Shown: positions 37,742 through 52,200 of the stretch, in pieces
Layout: every line of letters begins with the position of its first letter
Numbering within the stretch: the first letter of the stretch is position 1
Assembly (NCBI GenBank): GCA_026023565.1
Contig: JAPETS010000013.1
Span: forward strand, 186,001 to 250,000
Direction of reading: 5' to 3'
DNA: 64,000 bases
Source: Cirrosporium novae-zelandiae
Taxonomy: Eukaryota
Translations under genes and position numbers: made by a program
Notes under the pieces: generated by a model
Told to the model about the DNA's origin: nothing
Databases searched by the model: none
The model's input: the letters and a program-made list of their open reading frames with translations, nothing else

Positions 37742-40218
37742 ATGATGCGGAATAAAGCGTCCAGCTCCATGCAAAAAACCTATGACGAATGCTATTTAAT
37801 ATGTTCTACGGCCATCTATTTTGAAGGGAAGGTGTGTGATGCCTAGACACCTCGATTACCTTGAGTTCCAATGCAAACTGCCCGCTAACATTGTTTCCTT
37901 ATTTACGTAGAACAACGAAACCGAAGCTCTTCGGTCTTGGAAATCAGCACTCGATCAGATATACTATCACAATGCTTATCGAATTCCCGCAAACTATCAA
38001 CCTAAGAATGAAACCGAAAAGGCCCTTCAGGATGCCTTGCGGGATATGGAGAGGCAATGTAAAGAGCGAGTGGATTTGCTGGAAGCGCTGAAACAAAGCC
38101 GCATTGAATCGAAAAAAGACGATGAAGAGTCAAAAGATGGGAAGAAAAAGGTGCCAGGCACATATCAGTCAACCGATGAGGATGTACCGGGATTCATTGG
38201 AGGAGGGACAATACCTGCCATCAATTATCCTGATATCTCTAAGCCTACACCGCAATTGCCTGCACGGCCGAACACTCTCCGTAAAAGGTCCTCGGATTCT
38301 CCTGGTGCGAGGCCAATAATGACCTCTTGTGAGAACGGGTCCCAGTCTTCCGTACCGAAATCGTCGTCGACGTTTGCGCGCACCTTAAGGACCCCGAGCC
38401 CTGACAAAAAGAGTGGCCGCATGAGAATGACACTTCGAGAGCAGCCAAAGGACCGTCATAAGTCTCGAAGGAAATCTTCAAAGGCCATCAAACCAGCCGC
38501 CGCATCAAAAGCTGCAGGATTGGCGTGGGATGCATTGTCAAGGACACCATCAGCAGGACTACCAAGCTCCACTTCAACCCCTAGGAGTAGCACCGACGGA
38601 CCTCGTGGCGACGGTTCTTATTCCCTGAGGCCTTCCGAGGATGATGTTCCCCAAACAACAAGCCGAAGAAGAACAGTTAATACATCAGACGAGCTTGATG
38701 ATTCTGCTTGGCGAGACATTGGCACTGCTCCATCGAGCTGCACGCCTGAGGAATTTTACTATCGAAATTTACCTACGACAGTGGAGCAGCTAAATCTAGG
38801 AGAACACGCCCAGTCCCCACGTTCTGAGGTGCCACCAACTCTGTCGTCGCAGTCATCTGCCTTGTCTGTGCCTGCCGCTTCTTTAGTCTACAGGAGGGAG
38901 TACCCCGAGGCCTCGAACAGCTCTCGGCGTCGAATGAAGGCTGACCTAGCAAGACCTGAAAGTACTGGTCATATAAATCGCTCTTATCCAGCAGATATTT
39001 TGTCACACACGCAATCGGCACCAGATACCCCGAATCATGCATCTACTAACGCGTCAAGCTCCCGAGTAAATCGGAAACGTGTTCCAAATAGACGGCCCAC
39101 AAGTTCCTCCGGCAGCCAAGAAGAACAAAACGATTCGTCGGATTCTTCAAAGCGACGAGCACAGAAATACAAAGATGAAATGAAGGCAGTCTTGAAACGC
39201 CTACCGAAAGGAGTGGATCAAGAAGCCGCCAAGCAGATTATCAATGAAATTGTCGTCAAAGGCGATGAGGTCCATTGGGACGACGTGGCCGGTTTAGATA
39301 TCGCCAAAACAGCTCTCAAGGAGGCAGTTGTTTATCCTTTTCTCCGGCCTGATCTCTTTATGGGCCTTCGAGAACCTGCCCGAGGAATGTTGCTTTTTGG
39401 GCCTCCCGGAACCGGCAAAACCATGCTTGCCAGAGCCGTTGCGACAGAGTCAAAATCCACCTTCTTTGCCATCTCCGCTAGTAGTCTCACATCTAAATGG
39501 TTAGGTGAAAGCGAAAAGCTTGTGAGAGCGCTTTTTGCGCTAGCGAAAGCCCTCGCGCCCTCGATTATTTTTGTTGATGAGATAGATTCTTTACTTTCTG
39601 CTCGATCAAATTCCAACGAACACGAAACTTCCCGTCGCATAAAAACCGAGTTTCTCATTCAGTGGTCCGATCTCCAACGTGCCGCAGCTGGGAGAGATCT
39701 TTCCGCCTCGGACAAGAAGGAAGGGGATGCAAGTCGAGTACTCGTCCTGGCGGCAACCAACATGCCATGGGCTATCGATGAAGCAGCGAGACGAAGATTT
39801 GTCAGGAGACAGTATATCCCGTTACCAGAGGGAAAAGTTAGGGGAGAGCAGTTGAGAAAGCTTCTGGCCAGTCAAAAACATTGTCTGGGCGACCAAGACA
39901 TTGAAGTATTAATCCGACTCACAGAGGGTATGCAACTTTATAATATAAATATATCTATGTTTTTTTCGAATGACCAGACTAACCAGTATCCAACCAGATT
40001 ACTCCGGTAGCGACATTACCGCCCTAGCAAAAGACGCAGCCATGGGACCCCTCCGAAGCCTAGGCGAGGCACTCCTCTCCATGTCTCCCGATCAGATCCG
40101 ACCCATTTCTTTTAACGATTTTGAAACCAGTATTATGGCCATACGACCGAGTGTCAGCAAAGATGGTTTGAAACAGTATGAAGATTGGGCAAAGGAGTTT
40201 GGGGAAAGAGGGGGTTGA
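37742..40218 (+). CDS. Meiotic-clade AAA ATPase, Sap1/Yta6 (spastin/fidgetin-like)
   Basis: Walker A 'GPPGTGKT', Walker B 'IIFVDEID', SRH '[18 protein letters not shown]', Vps4_C-like end 'YEDWAKEFG'. Introns at about 37832-37910 and 39928-39997. Confidence 0.9.
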
Positions 40219-42187
40219 TTTTTTTGGTTTTCTACTCTATAGGATTTTATTCGAGGAATCAGGCGCATGGGTTTTTTTTTCAATCCTACTTCTGGTGTTG
40301 GGGATGTGCATGCGGACGTTTTGTTTGGGTTGGGTTCCGTTGGGCAAACCTCATGGCAAAACACGAGGAGCTTTTTCTTCTTCTCTTTTTTAAACCTAAA
40401 GAAGGCATTTCCAGGGAGCAATTCTCGGACGTGTAGGTAGGTCGGTTGGTTGGTTGGCTGGTTGGTATCAAAACCTTGAGAGAGAAGATATCGAGGACAG
40501 GCAGGCAGGAAGACTGGCAGGCAGAGACACAAAGAACAATAAATGCAAAACCCCTTCCCTCATGGGGGTTTTCTCATACGTGCAGTTATTGTATTGCACT
40601 GTACCTACCTACCATATCCAACATATATTTAGATACCCATCAAACCCATCAAACCCATCACCGTCACCAAAACTAAAACCAAAACCACTAATCAGTCAAT
40701 TAATCAATCAATCAATTAAGCAGTCACCCCCAGACCGATAATGTAATATAATGTAATTAATTGATGTATTATAATGAAAAGGTATCAACCCGAACTAACT
40801 ACCTAGGTACTATACCAAGGTAACTGAAATTCTAAAAGCATGTTAGTGGTTGTGGATGGGTATGGATGGGTATAATGATGTGTTTTTGTTCTTATTCTTA
40901 TTCTCGCTCTTGTTCCTGTTCCTGTTCCTATTCTTGTTGGTCTTGGTTGAGATGATTACTGTTTTTTTTTTCCCTTTCTTTTGTCTTTGGTTCTAGTTTT
41001 GGTTTTATTTCTAGTTCTAACTGTATATATCTTTTTTTTGGTGTGTTTTCGCCCATGAATTAATTAGGTGACGGAGAAGAAAATAGTAATGACGAAAAAA
41101 AAAATGGAGGAAGAAGATTTGGGTTCAGGTTTGGATTGTTCGATTACCTATTACTCATAGCTATAACTATTCCCCTTCTCATTTATCTTCACCACGATCT
41201 GCAATCCTTCAAACCCCAACGCGACAACCATCCCATCATCCCATCATCCCATACCAGTTCGAGGTGGAGAAAATGATGATAGTGGTGGTGGAGGTGGAGG
41301 GGGTATGAGAATGCAACGGAAAGGAGAAAGTATAGCGGAAAGAGGGAAAAGGGATTTTAGGGTTATGGAGTTATGAGAATAAGATTAAGGGTTATATAGT
41401 TATAGTGATAGGATTATAGGGGAGGTAGGTTTGATTGGTTGGTTGATTAGTTGGTTGGTATCAAAATCTTGAGACAAAGAGAGAATATATCGAGGATAGG
41501 CACAGGCAAACAAAGCAAAATAAATGTTAAAACCCCTTCCTCGTGGGGTTTTCCAATACATACGTATAGACTATTGTATTTTATAGCCTTGCTTGCCTCT
41601 CTCTACCTGTTCCTATATTAGGATCTAGTCTATACAGTACGATCCATTACCAAGACCAGTACCTCGGTTAACCCCTTTAAATTGCACTTTCATTTCAAGT
41701 TGAAATGAAAAAAGACTTGTCCCTTACAATTACTGTCCATCATTATTTTACAGCCCGCAAACCACAGATCCCAACGCCTCTCAATACGCAATTGATTAGC
41801 TCTTCTGGTAAGTAGTCGCGACAGGAATGAGAAAACGCCAGATGGATTTGATTATGAGGTGTTATCAAACAAATGTTAAGAGATATGTCCGCACACAACG
41901 AGAAATTAGAAATCTTGAGAATATAACGAGAGTTGCTCTCAAACACAATGGCCGCAAAGCCTTCAACCCCTATTCCTCCGAATCCTTTCCTACAAACCCC
42001 GCAAATACCTATAATCCCCACGGAAGCAGAATCTTCCAATGTGGAGGTAAGAGATTCCCCTCGACATATCCTTAAATACAAAAGTACCTTGGTTGTTGGA
42101 CATCACTTCTTGGACCTCAGCTAACCAAGGCCCATCCTCGATGTCAGCTTTCTTGAACGTGATACAAGAGTTCTCGTTCACCACCAT

Positions 42188-43149
42188 CTATGGCTTGGCT
42201 AGTTTGTTACCAAAGAAAGCGTTCACATCAATGCCTTCAGCTACCCCAACAATTCCCATACCGCTCTGCTTAGCATTGACGTTGCTGATGTCCTGAGTCA
42301 AGTCCGTATTTTTATGTCCCATGTTGATGCTACCGACTAGCAGCTGACCATGGTCACTCATATCAATTTGCCTAATATTTTGTTTCGTCTGGATACGGTG
42401 GATATCCGACAAGAGCCCCTCTAACACCTTTCGAGAATTGCAAAGCCCAGTACGCTGATCTTTAAGTTCCTCTGCTATTTCTGATGGCTCCTTAGCTTGC
42501 TCGTCAACCTCCTTCAATCTCATATTTACTTCTGTAGTCTGTTTATTCGTCTCTTCAATGTCCTTTTTGAGATTACTCTTTTTTGTCAATAAGATGTTTC
42601 TGATATCTTCTGTAATCATGTTCGAGGAAGCGGTATTAAGCCTTTGGGGCACAACGTTAATATAACTTTTTCTTCTAACTGAATTTATTGGTTCCCAGAA
42701 TAGGTTTGCGCATACAAAGTTGCAGTAATAACTGCTGAGTTGACGGTACTCTTGCACGTATTAAGCTGCCCACTCAGTACTTTGATATCAGGCTCTGAGA
42801 ACAATCCTACTCGTACCCGGTCCCGCCAGTGGATCTGGCCATCTGCAGAGTGCTTCATGCATTTTGTGAGTTTAGTCTGAATTTTTTCGCATACTCCTTT
42901 GCAACTGTTAATAACATGGCCTAAGTCAGTTTTGGTATCGTGATTTAGTGTTTCAAATTCTGGCCCTTGTATTGCTGTATCCAAAGTTGCAAAGATCTTC
43001 TCAACCGCCAAGACATCTTCCTTAAGGTCTCTTATCATTTCTGGTGCCCCTTTAATAGCCTGGATATTCTCACGTAGTGCTCTAATGCTTTGCAAGGCAG
43101 GACCTGCAATGCCAATGGCGCCGGCGGTAATACTAAACGGATCTGCCAT
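42188..43149 (-). CDS. HeLo-like (HELL / Helo_like_N) effector with C-terminal two-repeat HET-s-related amyloid motif, about 295 aa
   Basis: N-terminus MADPFSITAGAIGIAG..APEMIRDL is typical of fungal STAND N-terminal/HeLo-like domains. One intron 42642-42715 (GTATGC..ATTAAC..AAG) joins the two ORFs in frame. C-terminal 17-aa pseudo-repeats QNIRQIDMSDHGQLLVG and QDISNVNAKQSGMGIVG, then aromatic tail DVNAFFG. Confidence 0.82.
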
Positions 43150-43865: not shown

Positions 43866-45275
43866 ATGAGCTCGACAGGTATTAATCAGAAAATATCAAA
43901 TATTAAAGCAAGCGATGGCTCGCGGTTGTTTGTAGGAAATAACACAACCAATATCGTAAATCAAAGTAAGTAACGTCTATTTCGGCAACTTGTTAGAGCC
44001 TAGCCTAACTTTACTATGGATGGAGACGCTAGAGACCTGCTCCAGCTGCTTCCTTCCGCTCCTCGGGCGGCGTTTAATGCTTCGGGAAAAGACGACGACC
44101 CTCTTTGCCTTCCTAATACTCGAGTGGATCTTCTCAGGCAGATAAGGACATGGGCTGATGGAGATGATAAGAAGTATATCTTTTAGTTAAACGGTATTGC
44201 GGGCACTGGAAAATCCACCATAGCTCGTACGATTGCCCGTGAATACTACGACAAGAAATACCTTGGGGGAAGTTTCTTTTTCTCTAGAAGTGAAAAAGAT
44301 GTTAGTCATGCCGGCAACTTTGTTGGTAGTATTGCTGTGCAGCTAGCCAGATTTCCAGTTCTTAAGGATGTGATTTCCGATGCAATATCAAACCACAATG
44401 GAGTCGTCGACATGATCCTTCTTGATCAATGGAAAATTTTTGTTCTCGAGCCGCTGTCCAAGTTAGAAATCGATTCGGCATGGCTGATTATCGTGATCGA
44501 TGCTTTAGATGAATGTGAGAACAAGAGCGACATTTGACAAGTTCTTAAACTTTTGGCTAGCGTTCGAGACTTACAAACTATTCGTTTTAAAGTCTTAATA
44601 ACGAGCAGACCTGAAACATCTATCTGATTTGGCTTCTCACAAGTTGAAAAATCCGACCGTCAAGATTGTGCTCTTCACGACATATCTCGGGATTATGTGA
44701 ACCAAGATATTTTTACCTTCCTAGAAAATAAATTCGAAATGATTAGAGAGAAGTATCAGATTGGTTTAGATTGGCCAACCAAACATGATATAAGGCGTTT
44801 GGTCGATAAAGCTGCAGGTTTATTTATATGGGCCGCAACTGCTTGGCGGTATATCGACGAAGGCGACCAACGATTTGCTCGAAAACGATTATCTGATATC
44901 ATCCAAGACTATGGCTCTATCACTAAATCGGAAATCGAACTCAACAAGATATACATCAAAGTTCTTGAGAATCCTGTTAGTCCCCTTTTTGATAAACAGG
45001 AGAAGCGTCTTTGTTACACAGCCCAAAGAGAAATTCTTGGAACCATTATTAACCTATATTCACCACTCTCTGTTTCCTCTCTTGCTAGATTACTGCAAAT
45101 GCCGATAGAAAATATCAATAGGGCGTTAGCAGGCCTCCATTCCGTTTTGAATATACCAGAGGATTTAGACCGTCCAATCTGTCTATATCATCCTTCATTC
45201 CGTGACTTCCTGTTTGACAAAAAACGATGCAGTGATTTACACCTAGTAGACTAGAATGAGGCACATGCAACTTGA
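43866..45275 (+). pseudogene. NACHT-type fungal NLR (HET-E/NWD2-like) with N-terminal amyloid motif, nonsense-disrupted and truncated before any sensor repeats
   Basis: Exon 1 MSSTGINQKISNIKASDGSRLFVGNNTTNIVNQ, intron from 43966 (GTAAGT..CCTAAC). Then 'AAFN..CLPNTRVDLL..I..W', Walker A 'GIAGTGKST', 'LGGSFFFSR', Walker B 'IVIDALDEC', 'LITSRPE', 'AAGLFIWAAT', 'HPSFRDFL'. In-frame stops at 44184, 44535, 44625 and 45252. Confidence 0.88.
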
Positions 45276-46832: not shown

Positions 46833-48712
46833 TTAGCCCATGCGCGGTCCTACTATCCCGCTATTCATATTTCTTGTCATTTTATCTGCCTTTTCCCTAC
46901 TTGGGGTCTGTTCTCCTGGCTTGGCCATATGATTAGCCACTTGAACAACACTCAATACAGATTTCTTTGCCTCCTCCAAACCTCCTAGTTGCGCGCCTAA
47001 TAGTTTCTTCGCTACTTCCTCTACCCCCGCACCATCCTCCCTCAACCAATCCACACCAAAACATCTCCCAACAAGCCTCACCGTCGTCTCGTCAGCAGGT
47101 GCGAAATGAGCACTTCTGCTTCCTGAAAGCATTTGAAGAAGTCGTAGAATTTCATCCCGTTTGTAGTGAGGGGGGTAACGGAGTTGGGTGTGTGCTAGTA
47201 GCGGATGAAAGACGCGGAGGTATGTGTGTCTTAGGGATGCGGCTTCTTCGGGGAGGTCGAGTAGATTACGAATCATGACATCGACGAGAACATGTAGGTC
47301 GTTTGTGTAGAAGTATTCATAGGTTTGACGGTTGGTGAATAAAAGGTATAGGAGTTTGAGGATAAGAAGTTGAAGAGAGGTTTCGCCTAGGAGGTGGTTA
47401 GTGGAACCAATAAGGAAATGGTAATAATGGTAGGGTCACTACGTACTCTCGCGGTTAAGAAGTATAATAATGTTTTCGCCAAAGGTCTTGTATTGTAAAC
47501 CATGGTAGGAAAGTACCTTGATAACCTTATTCGTTAACTGAATGGATGGATTTTGTCTAGGTCCTGGATCATGCGCTGCAACCATGTATTGCTCATTCAA
47601 GACCAACTGCAAGTAATTAGTATCTTTCTTTGCAAAATTACCAAAGGGATTCCTACCAATACTCTTATAACGGGGTAGTGATAAGGATCATCTACATCAT
47701 CAGAAAGCTCCTCAATTGTTTCGAATAATGAACATATGAACCCATCTTCGATTAAAGCTGTTCCCGCGAAGTTAGTATATCTCTAGCATCCTGTTATTCG
47801 GCCACCAATATCCCTAGAAACGTACATAAATCGTCAATGTGTATCCTCTGAATTCTAGACATTTCGTAGAACAATTCCAACAGCAGCCGATTCAACCCAT
47901 CATCATCATCATCTTTCTGTGACTGTATCAATTCTAATAGTCTGGGAAAGGCCCCTTCCTGATTCATCATCTCGAAAGTATCTTCATTTTGGCGGCCGTC
48001 CGAGAGGAGAAAGGAGACAACGAGGTGAAGAGTTGCGGGGTCGTCTTCCTATTTGCCCACCGAGTCAGCATTTCCGTATGTAAATGGCTTGAATTTTGAA
48101 TCTTGGAACCACAAACCTGTAAGAGTCCATATATGATCTGTCGTCTTACGTAGTCTTTGTGGGCGCAGAAAAGTGTTGACTGCAATAGCTTGTAGGAGCA
48201 CTTCGCAACGTCATATTCAGAAGGCAAATATTCCCCTGTCCGTTCCAAAAAATGTTAACCTCGTCACTTTCGAGTTATCCGAATAAATGTGGTAATGACC
48301 TTTGTATTTTGTAGTGAAGCTTAGGTATGACCGTAGAGCATTATCAATAAGGGCATGCGATTGACAGTTGGCGGAGACAATGTCATCGATTTCTAATATT
48401 GAGAATGTCAGCTTGCGGACTCGAGTGACGATCAGCTTGTGGTAATGTCTTGCATGCTACTGCCACTCAGATTGACAACTTCTTGACCGCGACCTCCGAG
48501 GTTCCTCCAGCTTTGTTAATTTCGAGTCAACATGCAGTCTTCGTCAGAGTTCTCCTACAGTCCCGTCGAGTCCCTGGAATGGCATTGTCAAGATGGTCGA
48601 ATCCAAGCGGCAGCAGCGTAACGAAAAAAAACGTTAGTACAGCGGGGAAAGAGCACGCACCATCCCAAAATTGCTGCTCATTGTCGAGGGTATAAGAAAC
48701 TTCAAACTCCAT
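46833..48712 (-). CDS. LDB17: Ldb17/Dip1 (SPIN90/WISH family Arp2/3 activator, DUF2013)
   Basis: [24 protein letters not shown], '[12 protein letters not shown]', 'VLNEQYMVA', 'FGENIILLLNRE', '[21 protein letters not shown]...[13 protein letters not shown]'. Multi-exon, intron 1 at 48393-48660. Confidence 0.85.
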
Positions 48713-49221
48713 TCCTAACAAACTCCTAGATGGATTTAGAGGTAAAAATAAAGGTTATCTCAAAGGCATAGTTGTGGTTTGGGTGGTGGAAGCACGTGGC
48801 TGTGTTGCTGGATCGAGCGTAATTGTATTGAGCGTACTCCGTAGCGGATAATTAATTTATTTGAAGAAGTCACGCTGATGATCCCCTGTTTGGGTATCAC
48901 TCCTATTACAGATAGATTACGGAGTCATGGCATTGTCATCATTAATATTCTTTTGAGCTGATGAGTTTTGCACTTGACCAGCTTGAATATACAAAGTGGA
49001 AGACGTTGAATAATGATATACACTCCATACACCAGCTGTTCCAATCCCTCAACTGAAAAGTATTCGTCACGTCTGATCCAGCATCACCACTCAAGACCGT
49101 ATCTAATGAACCCCGCTACTCGAGCCCCTATCCCAACTTAACGCCATTTAAATGCACACCAAGGTACCGTAAAGCATGTATTAACACATAGAGGACCCTC
49201 CGCCCTCCGAATACCTCATGC

Positions 49222-52200
49222 TCAAAACAAAGATGGGGCAGGTCTTTTAAACGGATGTGCTTCCGTATTCCTATACCAGCCAGTCAATACGGCATTTTCT
49301 TATTGAAGTCCCAGGAAAAAACTTACAAAACATAATCGTCCAAGCTCATGACACTCGGGTCGCTGAACAAAAGATAAAAGTATTTTAGCGTCTCCGCTAA
49401 CCAGAAAGACTCCATCTCATCTTTGAATATAGGTGCCTGGCTCGTAACGTCTTTGATTGCTGAATTCCCAAATTCCGTTCTCGTGTAGTTCTGAATGGCC
49501 GTGAACATCTGCCAGCCCTTTTCGCGCCAGTACTCGTCACCGGTGGTTCGGTATAAGATGAAAACCGATTCAATAGCTTCGGGTCTATTTGAAAAGTTAA
49601 TAGGGTTGCTATCTCAACAGGTGGTATGATTGGTTACCTTAAAATATACTTAGGACTCCATATGTTAACAAACCCTGGAGGAAGTCTCTCCTCCTCAATC
49701 TTTGCCTGAACAAACTGCTCGTGTGTAGGGATGGGCTTGGGTGTAAAGGCTGGTTTTATTGGGTTGGTTTTTCTGCCACTACGTTGCCCATCACCATCCT
49801 TTTCAACCACAGGTGCTGCTGCCGGGCTTCCGGTAGAGGGAAGATCATACCCTCTATTGTAAACATCATCACCAACTTGCCTCTTTTTGATATTACTATC
49901 AAGTTGGTTCCTGTCGGGTTCCGCAAGTTTAGCCCTGGGAGGAGGAGCCTGAGGAAGTGTCTGAGCAGCAGATTCATCATCCTCATCATCCTCTTGGTGT
50001 GCTTCTAGAAGCTTTTGCTGGAGTGCTGCAGCTTCGTCTTCTCGCAGTTGACGCCACGGATCGAGTATTTCATGCCACTTGGTTTCATTCCACGGACATT
50101 TGGCCTGATCTTCACAAGGGACAGCAATAAACCCTTCAGGCATTATGCCTGTTGTCGTAGCTTCATAAGCCCATACGCAGCCATCAGTAAGACCTTTTGC
50201 GATGTCCATGTCTTCTGCTAAACCGAATATCTTAGCTCCAAGAGCAAACATTCCGCCAGCAAAGCAGGTAAGATGTTGGCCCTCAGGCTTAAGCTTTAAC
50301 CGGTGATCTCCATCTGTCTTGATGGATCCAGAGAAAAGAACCTTTCTATCCTCGTTGGGGATCATGGCCCTAAAAATTAAATACTTCCGGACAGTCTCCA
50401 TAGAATATTCGTACATGGTCCTATATTGATCGTTCACGCCACCTAGAAGCAAATACTCTTTCGGAAGGTATTCGTAGACAGAATCAGACATACCGCCAAG
50501 GGTGAATTCATCCAAAGTGGTTTTCGGAGGAGACCCTAGGCCTTGAGGTTCGCAAATTTCGCTACTAAGTGGAAGATCTGCTGATTTGAATCGCTCGGAG
50601 GATATTTTTGGCTCTCCGGGTGACTTAGGGGCCTTTGCAGATCGTGCGTCGGGGGAAGTCCCGTTGGTTGAAGTCTCCTGGGATTGTGACTCGTCCGATA
50701 CCGAGAGATCAGTTAACTGTCTCTTGTCAAGGGACGAAGATTGACTTGTCCCTTGCTCCGATGCTGCAGAGTCTCCCCAACCTTGAATTCGACCTTTCTT
50801 GATACTAGCACCGGTGGAAGATCCTTCAAGAGACGAATCTTTCTTGACAGTGTCAGTCCATGGAGTGGTATCGTCGTCATCGCTCTCCTCTTTCGAAGAT
50901 TTCGCTGAAGATGAATCTGAGTTTCCTCCCATCTGCTTACTCTGCCAATGTATCGAATCTTCAAGCTGGCTCTGTGGTCCGTTTAATAATGCATGCTCAA
51001 CGGATGTCGTAGACTGCTGAGAAAGCTTCTTACATCCCGATGCATCAACCGATACAGGCCACATCCCGGCCAGTTTCGTATTGTTCTGCCATATCTCAAA
51101 CTCGTTTGTAATCCGAGCAATTGCATCATAATACTTGGCATCCCTGGTGAGTTGGGCCAATCTGGTAAATTCCATGGATAGGGATCCAATCTCTGCAAGC
51201 ACAACACGGGTACTTGCACGATGAGGCTGAGACATGAACGTTGGCATCCAACGATAATAGGTTACTGGCATGCGGTTCGGAGTATCAAATGCTCCCATAA
51301 GGATCTCTCCGAGTTCGATGGCTTTGTCCAGAAGAGCTCGGTATCTTTGCCCGCTAATATCATAAGCTGCAAGTAAACCGCCCAAATATCTTATAACAGT
51401 TTCGAATAGTGGAATATCCTTCCTCGGGCTTGTAGTGAAATCGATCTTTTCAACTGCATTTACGGCCTCTTCAAATTCGGATTTTTTGCCCATAATCCAT
51501 AATGTATCAAGTGTATCCACCAAAGTCGCAGCCCAACCGCAGAATGGATCTCTGAAATCCCCAGAGACAGGCCTCAATTCATCATGGAGCCAAGCAAGTT
51601 CTTTGTAACCAGACCAAGCGTGGTCAAAGGCCTCCTCGACAGCAGCCAGTCTTCGTTGTCTATCGATCTTTGAATTTGAAGACTCATCCTTGAAATTATA
51701 TTGAATCTTAGGAATCTTCTTGACCTTTCCTGAAGGGATAGGTATAACGGATTCGGAGGGAAGGGGGAAATGCTCTGGGAATTTCGTCCAATGCATCACT
51801 GGTTGTGTAGAAGGGAAGATATTTGGTTCCTTCCTTCCTTGTCCTTGTTCTGATAACTCTTCATCTTCTGTATGTGTACCACTATGTGGATACGGAACCG
51901 TTCCTGCGTCAGAATCTTCCCATGGCTGGTCGGCCAATGTAGCCAAGGACACCGACGAAGATTTCGCGGTGCTTAAACTCGAACTCGTCTCCGAGCTCGC
52001 AATGGTTTTGACAATTGTGCTGGTCGGTGTAACGGCGAGGAAGTCTTCCAGGGTAGATGTAGTCAAGGGTTGACGTTTACTTGTCACAGTAGACGAAAAC
52101 TCTTCAGTATCCAGTTCAGCAGGCTTTAGACCTGAGCCATGTGTTTGGACCGGAACTGATAAAGGAGACGTTGTAATAACTGCATCCGGTCTTCCCCCAT

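Follow-up and report, generated by a model that had tools for sequence, protein, structure and literature searches.

Here we describe a divergent gene pair in a 64,000-nucleotide stretch of the Cirrosporium novae-zelandiae genome (contig JAPETS010000013.1, positions 186,001 to 250,000; hereafter ‘the window’), one member of which encodes a 295-residue effector with a HeLo-like N-terminus and a C-terminal tail of two HET-s-like repeats. The host belongs to the Xylobotryomycetes, a class of ascomycetes. In our judgement this is, with high likelihood, an ordinary fungal amyloid-signalling pair of effector and nucleotide-binding oligomerisation domain (NOD)-like receptor (NLR), belonging to the published HRAM2 class of amyloid motifs related to HET-s (HRAM), in which the effector, with its candidate prion-forming domain of ~70 residues, has probably been left orphaned. 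A preliminary description of the stretch had pointed to the two-repeat prion-forming-domain architecture, and to Gln where HET-s has Asn; both have held up. It had also suggested that the tail may be a distinct HRAM subfamily, one that does not cross-seed HET-s, and the idea of a new subfamily is not supported by comparison with the literature: by sequence, the tail is a real two-repeat motif and an ordinary new member of a class that already has a name.

The effector gene and its repeats

The minus strand between positions 42188 and 43149 holds a two-exon gene, the product of which, after splicing, is 295 residues (295 codons) in length. Its parts are as follows.

42716..43149, minus strand: exon 1, beginning MADPFSITAGAIGIAG, with the HeLo-like (HELL) cell-death domain at the N-terminus
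42642..42715, minus strand: intron of 74 nt (GTATGC ... AAAG), removal of which gives 295 codons that match the database protein P0003 across the junction (...ITATLLNTASS...)
42188..42641, minus strand: exon 2, a charged linker and then the prion-forming-domain-like C-terminus, with the stop at 42188-42190
42326..42388, minus strand: repeat r1 in a 21-residue register (residues 230-250), TKQNIRQIDMSDHGQLLVGSI, in which position 3 is Q and position 19 is G
42302..42325, minus strand: inter-repeat loop of 8 residues, NMGHKNTD, as read from the translation
42239..42301, minus strand: repeat r2 (residues 259-279), LTQDISNVNAKQSGMGIVGVA, with Q at position 3, G at position 19 and G at position 16
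42191..42238, minus strand: C-terminal tail, EGIDVNAFFGNKLAKP, which contains EGIDVNAFFG and in which an aromatic pair is conserved

The reading frame is intact and the intron clean, and the spliced product is 100% identical over 295 residues to P0003, carried in the database as ‘MAG: hypothetical protein M1834_001329 [Cirrosporium novae-zelandiae]’. The N-terminal 145 residues are matched by PF17111 (PigL_N; formerly the fungal STAND N-terminal, or HeLo-like, domain), at E-values of 4.5e-20 for the exon 1 product and 8e-25 for the whole of P0003; SesA (PF17107) gives a weaker match, at 3.8e-6. The protein thus has the length and layout of an HRAM effector: 295 residues (below 310), a HeLo-like N-terminus and a motif confined to the last ~80 residues.

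As regards the repeats themselves, the strings and coordinates given in the preliminary description proved exact, with R1 at 42332-42382 (QNIRQIDMSDHGQLLVG) and R2 at 42245-42295 (QDISNVNAKQSGMGIVG), both on the minus strand, their starts 87 nt, and so 29 residues, apart; the same is true of the linker, SINMGHKNTDLT, and of the tail, VAEGIDVNAFFGNKLAKP, which the stop codon follows directly. The HET-s repeats quoted alongside them match those printed in row 2RNM of the supplement to the 2015 paper discussed below. In the longer 21-residue register, Gln occupies position 3 of both repeats (Q232 and Q261), and Gly position 19 (G248 and G277), the latter being invariant in 19/19 aligned relatives. 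Positions 5, 8, 10, 16 and 18 read I, I, M, L and V in r1, and I, V, A, G and V in r2, and follow the HRAM hydrophobic pattern.

A third copy of the motif lies outside the effector, at the N-terminus of a NACHT NLR gene that runs divergently from it, starting at 43866 on the other strand, 717 bp away.

43881-43943, plus strand: r0 motif copy, INQKISNIKASDGSRLFVGNN, NLR residues 6-26; the best profile match in the window

Position 3 of this copy is again Gln (Q8). We built a single-repeat profile of 21 columns from the r1 and r2 copies in 139 further proteins, excluding those of the window itself, and scanned it against 2205 six-frame segments of the 64-kb window. It matched r0 (27.3 bits, 2.5e-7), r2 (20.4 bits, 4.2e-5) and r1 (18.7 bits, 1.5e-4), and nothing else in those segments, the next best having an E-value of ~2. 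Scored directly against the effector, r0 finds its best windows exactly at r1 (30) and r2 (27), with the next at 14, and a score of 30 was reached in only 9 of 1000 shuffles. Identities are 8/21 to r1 and 7/21 to r2, a difference in the direction of the published HRAM2 trend for r0 to lie nearer r1, but a trivial one. Once such evidence from outside the effector is counted, the two-repeat motif is, at the level of sequence, in excess of chance.

Assignment to HRAM2 and the homologue family

Five HRAM subfamilies were defined in 2015 (Daskalov, Dyrka & Saupe 2015, Sci Rep 5:12494; PMC4518210, cited throughout from parts of its text, Table 1 and supplement). According to those parts, the hallmark of HRAM2 is Q at position 3, where HRAM1 (a and b) has N and HRAM3 has H, whilst HRAM4 and HRAM5 have Q at positions 18 and 16, respectively; shared by all are a perfectly conserved G19 and hydrophobic residues at positions 5, 8, 10, 16 and 18. 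Loops measure 6-18 residues in 154/155 sequences, the segment after r2 often carries aromatic residues, and an adjacent NLR with one r0 was present in 98/155 cases (PMC4518210). At the Cirrosporium locus all three copies of the motif have Gln at position 3, the effector repeats have none at the core positions (L and G at position 16, V and V at position 18, in r1 and r2), and the divergent NLR bears a single N-terminal r0, though that gene is interrupted by three stops.

The likeness extends to the printed sequences. Among the supplement rows are effectors in which both repeats have Q, the loop measures 7-8 residues and the tail is of the type [DN][IV]N..F: one from F. graminearum reads TKQNIRDVKTTGNSIALAGLI, an 8-residue loop, VEQNISQIHTDGHSISVAGVA and then KNLDINSMF, and a second effector reads RGQRITDVEMSGKGKALVGRV, a loop of 8, LYQEIHNVKATTGGKGIVGVV and KGLDINAFFKD, with an r0 of ITQHISGVNAESGGKVFAGYV; a Penicillium row (jgi Penbi1) ends in RGVDVNAFFKS, and a further tail of like type reads NGVDLNAFFK (PMC4518210). 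In Table 1 of the same paper F. graminearum is scored with HRAM1 four times and HRAM2 twice, and A. fumigatus with HRAM2 only. The six F. graminearum rows are four N-type with 15-residue loops and two Q-type, and those listed under EYB22904/FGSG_11.. have the anatomy of the effector family described here, as far as they are printed. Over the 75 residues printed for P0032, the C-terminus of the A. fumigatus row (Afu8g057..) is identical to that protein, which our family profile matches at 4.2e-33.

A 2017 review, likewise cited in part, names P. roqueforti W6Q0M1/W6PZN6 as an HRAM2 example (PMC5485727). The C-terminus of P0048 is identical to that of supplement row CDM2951x, as printed, and P0048 aligns with the window protein from end to end at 34% identity (E=1e-48), the prion-forming domain being ungapped. 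Going by its accession prefix, this row is presumably the P. roqueforti protein of the review.

Taken together, published HRAM2 effectors and the Cirrosporium effector are alike in their HeLo-like N-terminus, two 21-residue repeats, Q3 and G19, 7-8-residue loop and [DN][IVF]-x-x-[FLM]-type tail, and the loci in their adjacent NLR with one r0. They differ in that r1 of Cirrosporium begins TKQN, where most relatives have TGQR, in that Q and M take the place of K/R at position 15, in the host lineage (Xylobotryomycetes), and in the partner NLR, which here is a pseudogene by its sequence. Since a Q-type subfamily has been described since 2015, the tail is best regarded as an ordinary HRAM2 member and not as the founder of a new group.

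A wider family supports this placement. Word-based searches returned eight full-length relatives, including the self-match, and 18 proteins for a tail profile; Aspergillus, Penicillium and Periconia were the sources named among them. When 1.84 billion cluster representatives were searched with a linker-plus-tail profile, 270 of them matched at E<=1e-3, 125 at <=1e-10 and 12 at <=1e-30. From 168 proteins gathered, 155 match a tail-only hidden Markov model (HMM) and 140 span both repeats. Among these 140, Q occupies position 3 in 111 (r1) and 109 (r2), and G position 19 in 137 and 138; hydrophobic residues occupy positions 5, 8 and 10, Thr occurring at position 10 as well. The preliminary description had named loss of the alternating hydrophobic pattern and terminal Gly amongst homologues as evidence against its reading, and in the alignment and HMM both are kept. 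It had also remarked on a shorter loop and an FF tail: these are indeed present but are not peculiar to Cirrosporium, being the norm of HRAM2 (the loop is of 8 residues in 104/140). Similarly, the family has Gly at position 16 of r2 more often than any other residue (G 55/140, A 46/140), whereas K and N at positions 2 and 4 of r1 are unusual, the family having G in 77/140 and R/K in 81/140. At the other end of the protein, PF17111 is present in 33/36 long relatives; HeLo (PF14479) and the prion-forming-domain model for HET-s (PF11558) were found in 0/36 at E<=0.01.

Across the family the two repeats are equivalent only in register, the mean score between r1 and r2 column profiles being +0.98 at shift 0, and between -0.44 and -1.00 at shifts of +/-1-6. 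Charges are arranged in keeping with this: in-register pairs of opposite charge outnumber pairs of like charge at position 4 (61 vs 1), position 12 (38 vs 0), position 9 (31 vs 3) and position 13 (21 vs 1), whilst r1 and r2 alike tend to have a basic residue at position 15 (shared positive charge, 34 vs 5). As a sequence signature, the pattern matches that expected of parallel in-register stacking and agrees with the published covariation.

Predicted fold, proposed mechanism and rival readings

Among related systems, HET-S/HET-s with NWD2 of Podospora anserina belong to HRAM1 (PDB 2RNM/2KJ3, Pfam PF11558). In comparison with HET-s, the Cirrosporium effector has PF17111 in place of HeLo (PF14479) at its N-terminus, Q and not N at position 3, S and V and not N at position 20, a loop of 8 and not 15 residues, a repeat period of 29 and not 36, and NAFF where HET-s has GKGFW. 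HELLF of P. anserina is HRAM5 (PDB 6EKA), a class described as having QxFG at the start of the repeat and QG(QI) at positions 16-18 (bioRxiv 10.1101/2020.07.06.188508, cited in part). Both hallmarks are absent from the Cirrosporium repeats, which begin TKQN and LTQD and have LLV and GIV at positions 16-18.

The preliminary description had envisaged the same beta-solenoid fold, and suggested that it be modelled. AlphaFold2, given the last 80 residues and an alignment of 19 sequences (mean predicted local distance difference test score 73, predicted template-modelling score 0.58), places strands at 15-24, 29-35, 44-53 and 58-64, and a short helix at model residues 69-74, over the NAFF tail. With four strands, the second pair offset by 29 residues, the model is consistent with a two-rung beta-solenoid. 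Foldseek against the PDB gave no match at E<=1e-3, with HELLF (6eka) at rank 4 (E 4.2) and HET-s (2rnm) at rank 15 (E 8.7). Among 48,161 PDB chains, the sole structural matches to the model were the HET-s and HELLF fibrils, at weak to modest scores; it is suggestive that the matches should be the two HRAM fibrils of solved structure.

Taking NWD2/HET-S and HELLF as analogues, we propose a model for how such a pair might work. The effector would be a membrane-targeting cell-death protein of the HeLo-like type, of which the last ~70 residues, comprising r1 and r2, would form the prion-forming domain and be disordered in the soluble state. An activated, oligomerised NLR would gather its N-terminal r0 copies into a cross-beta template, able to convert r1 and r2 into two stacked, in-register beta-solenoid rungs; conversion would then release the HeLo-like domain, leading to membrane attack and cell death. 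Gln at position 3, replacing the Asn of HET-s at the entry to the first strand, is among the residues that give HRAM2 its identity and, presumably, its seeding specificity. In the parts of the literature cited, the authors of the 2015 paper proposed that subfamilies no longer cross-seed (PMC4518210), and a cross-seeding barrier between HRAM1 and HRAM5 prions has been described (bioRxiv 10.1101/2020.07.06.188508).

Several observations weigh against an HRAM2 prion module of this kind. Taken alone, r1 and r2 do not resemble each other more than chance would allow: their ungapped BLOSUM62 score is 20, with 5/21 identities, and when the protein is shuffled, a pair of 21-mers at least as good turns up 972 times in 1000. 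PF11558, the HRAM1 model, is absent from the effector at E<=10, Pfam finds nothing relevant on the tail alone at the same threshold, and the 70-residue tail, compared by phmmer with all PDB sequences, retrieves no HET-s or HELLF at E<=10, but three unrelated weak rows. The effector repeats have no in-register pair of opposite charge (0), as is also the case in 19/139 other relatives, and position 15 is Q (r1) and M (r2), without K/R, as in 56/139 others. The conservation seen in the 140 proteins is partly built in, because the profile used to collect them itself contained the motif, and AlphaFold was trained on HET-s structures, a monomer model being in any case a poor proxy for a fibril. Finally, the literature searched for HRAM2 yields no structure, seeding test or other experiment on any HRAM2 member.

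The first of these points would suit a chance resemblance, in which a disordered tail rich in Q, N, G and V merely looks like two repeats, but such a tail would hardly account for a profile that matches only three places in 64 kb, one of them the N-terminus of the divergent NLR, nor for the 270 representatives at E<=1e-3, nor for repeats that are equivalent across the family in one register alone. We therefore count that reading as refuted, and its likelihood as vanishingly small.

Somewhat less far-fetched, though still very improbable, is a genuinely new subfamily, apart from HRAM1-5. The missing matches to the Pfam HET-s model and to the HET-s and HELLF sequences might be taken in its favour, as might the unusual residues at positions 2 and 4 of r1 and at position 15; however, a miss by PF11558 is to be expected, because only 38/155 published HRAM proteins match it (PMC4518210), and Q at position 3 already defines a published class. 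The identity of P0032 with a row from a species that has HRAM2 only, and the alignment of P0048 with the effector over its length, both tie the protein to that class, and as isolated 21-mers the window's repeats score at the family median (r1, 25.3 bits vs 25.5; r2, 27.7 vs 26.4).

The partner NLR and the surrounding locus

Beyond r0, the NLR gene consists of the following.

43866..43965, plus strand: exon 1, MSSTGINQKISNIKASDGSRLFVGNNTTNIVNQ, which holds the single r0 copy
43966..44025, plus strand: putative intron of 60 nt (GTAAGT ... CTAAC ... AG), joining the r0 exon in frame to NACHT
44026..45254, plus strand: NACHT/NOD remnant, the frame of which closes at 45252-45254 and is followed by no repeat domain

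Three in-frame stops interrupt the gene, at 44184-44186 (TAG), 44535-44537 (TGA) and 44625-44627 (TGA). The first directly precedes the Walker A motif, GIAGTGKS, and between the first two stops the Walker A segment is still matched by NPHP3_N (1.8e-18) and NACHT (4.9e-6). The translation of the NLR frame has no ANK, WD or TPR repeats after the NOD module, and between 45255 and 46830 we saw, by eye and without a Pfam scan of the frames concerned, no long frame but only short low-complexity ones. This 1.6 kb, in which the repeat domain of the NLR would be expected, is low in complexity and rich in homopolymers (poly-C, poly-A and AAT runs), and includes two short tandem duplications (45563-45599/45627-45663 and 45588-45631/45649-45692).

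Judged by these lesions, three premature stops and a lack of sensor repeats, the NLR has become a pseudogene, and its partner effector is therefore probably orphaned at this locus. The effector could be silent, could respond to a different HRAM2 NLR encoded elsewhere in the genome, or could be decaying. The stops look like transitions, going by their motif context and not by alignment. Repeat-induced point mutation (RIP) was considered as their source and dropped: the usual thresholds are a TpA/ApT ratio > 0.89 and a substrate index < 1.03, and the values here (0.80 and 1.19 for the NLR, 0.88 and 1.36 for the effector) fall short of them.

It is also conceivable, though we think it unlikely, that the effector is itself a decaying relic, its tail drifting and no longer able to signal now that the NLR is dead, and its open frame a mere leftover. 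The state of the NLR, with its stops and lost repeat domain, would agree with this, as would a tail lacking both the charge pair and the basic residue at position 15, in a region that is somewhat AT-rich with low-complexity flanks. Yet all 295 codons of the frame are intact and its intron is clean, Q3 and G19 are kept in both repeats, the motif scores sit at the family median, the charge pair is likewise missing from 19/139 relatives, and the RIP indices fall short of the thresholds.

With about as little confidence, we can also speculate that the effector is an orphaned yet functional HRAM2 prion module, retained after the death of its NLR and acting either in trans with an unlinked HRAM2 NLR, or as a free-standing prion or allorecognition element in the manner of het-s; its charge-poor, Gln/Asn-rich repeats could then form a polar-ladder variant of the solenoid, with a seeding specificity of its own.

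Returning to the ordinary HRAM2 pair that we favour, its import beyond annotation is small. It adds an effector/NLR pair of this class from the poorly sampled Xylobotryomycetes, and is an example of a pair that has lost one partner, the NLR being dead and the effector next to it intact; besides the decay of the NLR, its small points of note are the lineage of the host and repeats that are poor in charge. Whether HRAM2 folds like HET-s, and whether its Gln class is shielded from the prions of HRAM1 and HRAM5, are general questions, not particular to this locus, posed in 2015 and 2017 (PMC4518210 and PMC5485727, in the parts cited), and any HRAM2 tail, including that of Cirrosporium, could serve for a structural or seeding experiment.

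As to the wider neighbourhood, an AAA ATPase gene lies at 38037-40218 on the plus strand (PF00004, 6.5e-39, at residues 450-595 of a 656-residue frame), with a long Ser/Pro-rich N-terminal region and a frame that appears to resume after a short intron in 39970-40218. Between it and the effector, in an AT-richer stretch, sits a 38-nt direct repeat, its copies 89% identical and 993 bp apart (40444-40481 and 41437-41474; GGTTGGTTGG...TATCAAAACCTTGAGA), which could be what is left of a small repeat element, or its ends. Further along, the minus strand carries at 46833-48750 a gene of several exons that encodes a SPIN90/Ldb17 leucine-rich domain (PF09431, 5.2e-31), and at 49323-49613 a gene for a family 47 glycosyl hydrolase (PF01532, 2.1e-41 on one exon).

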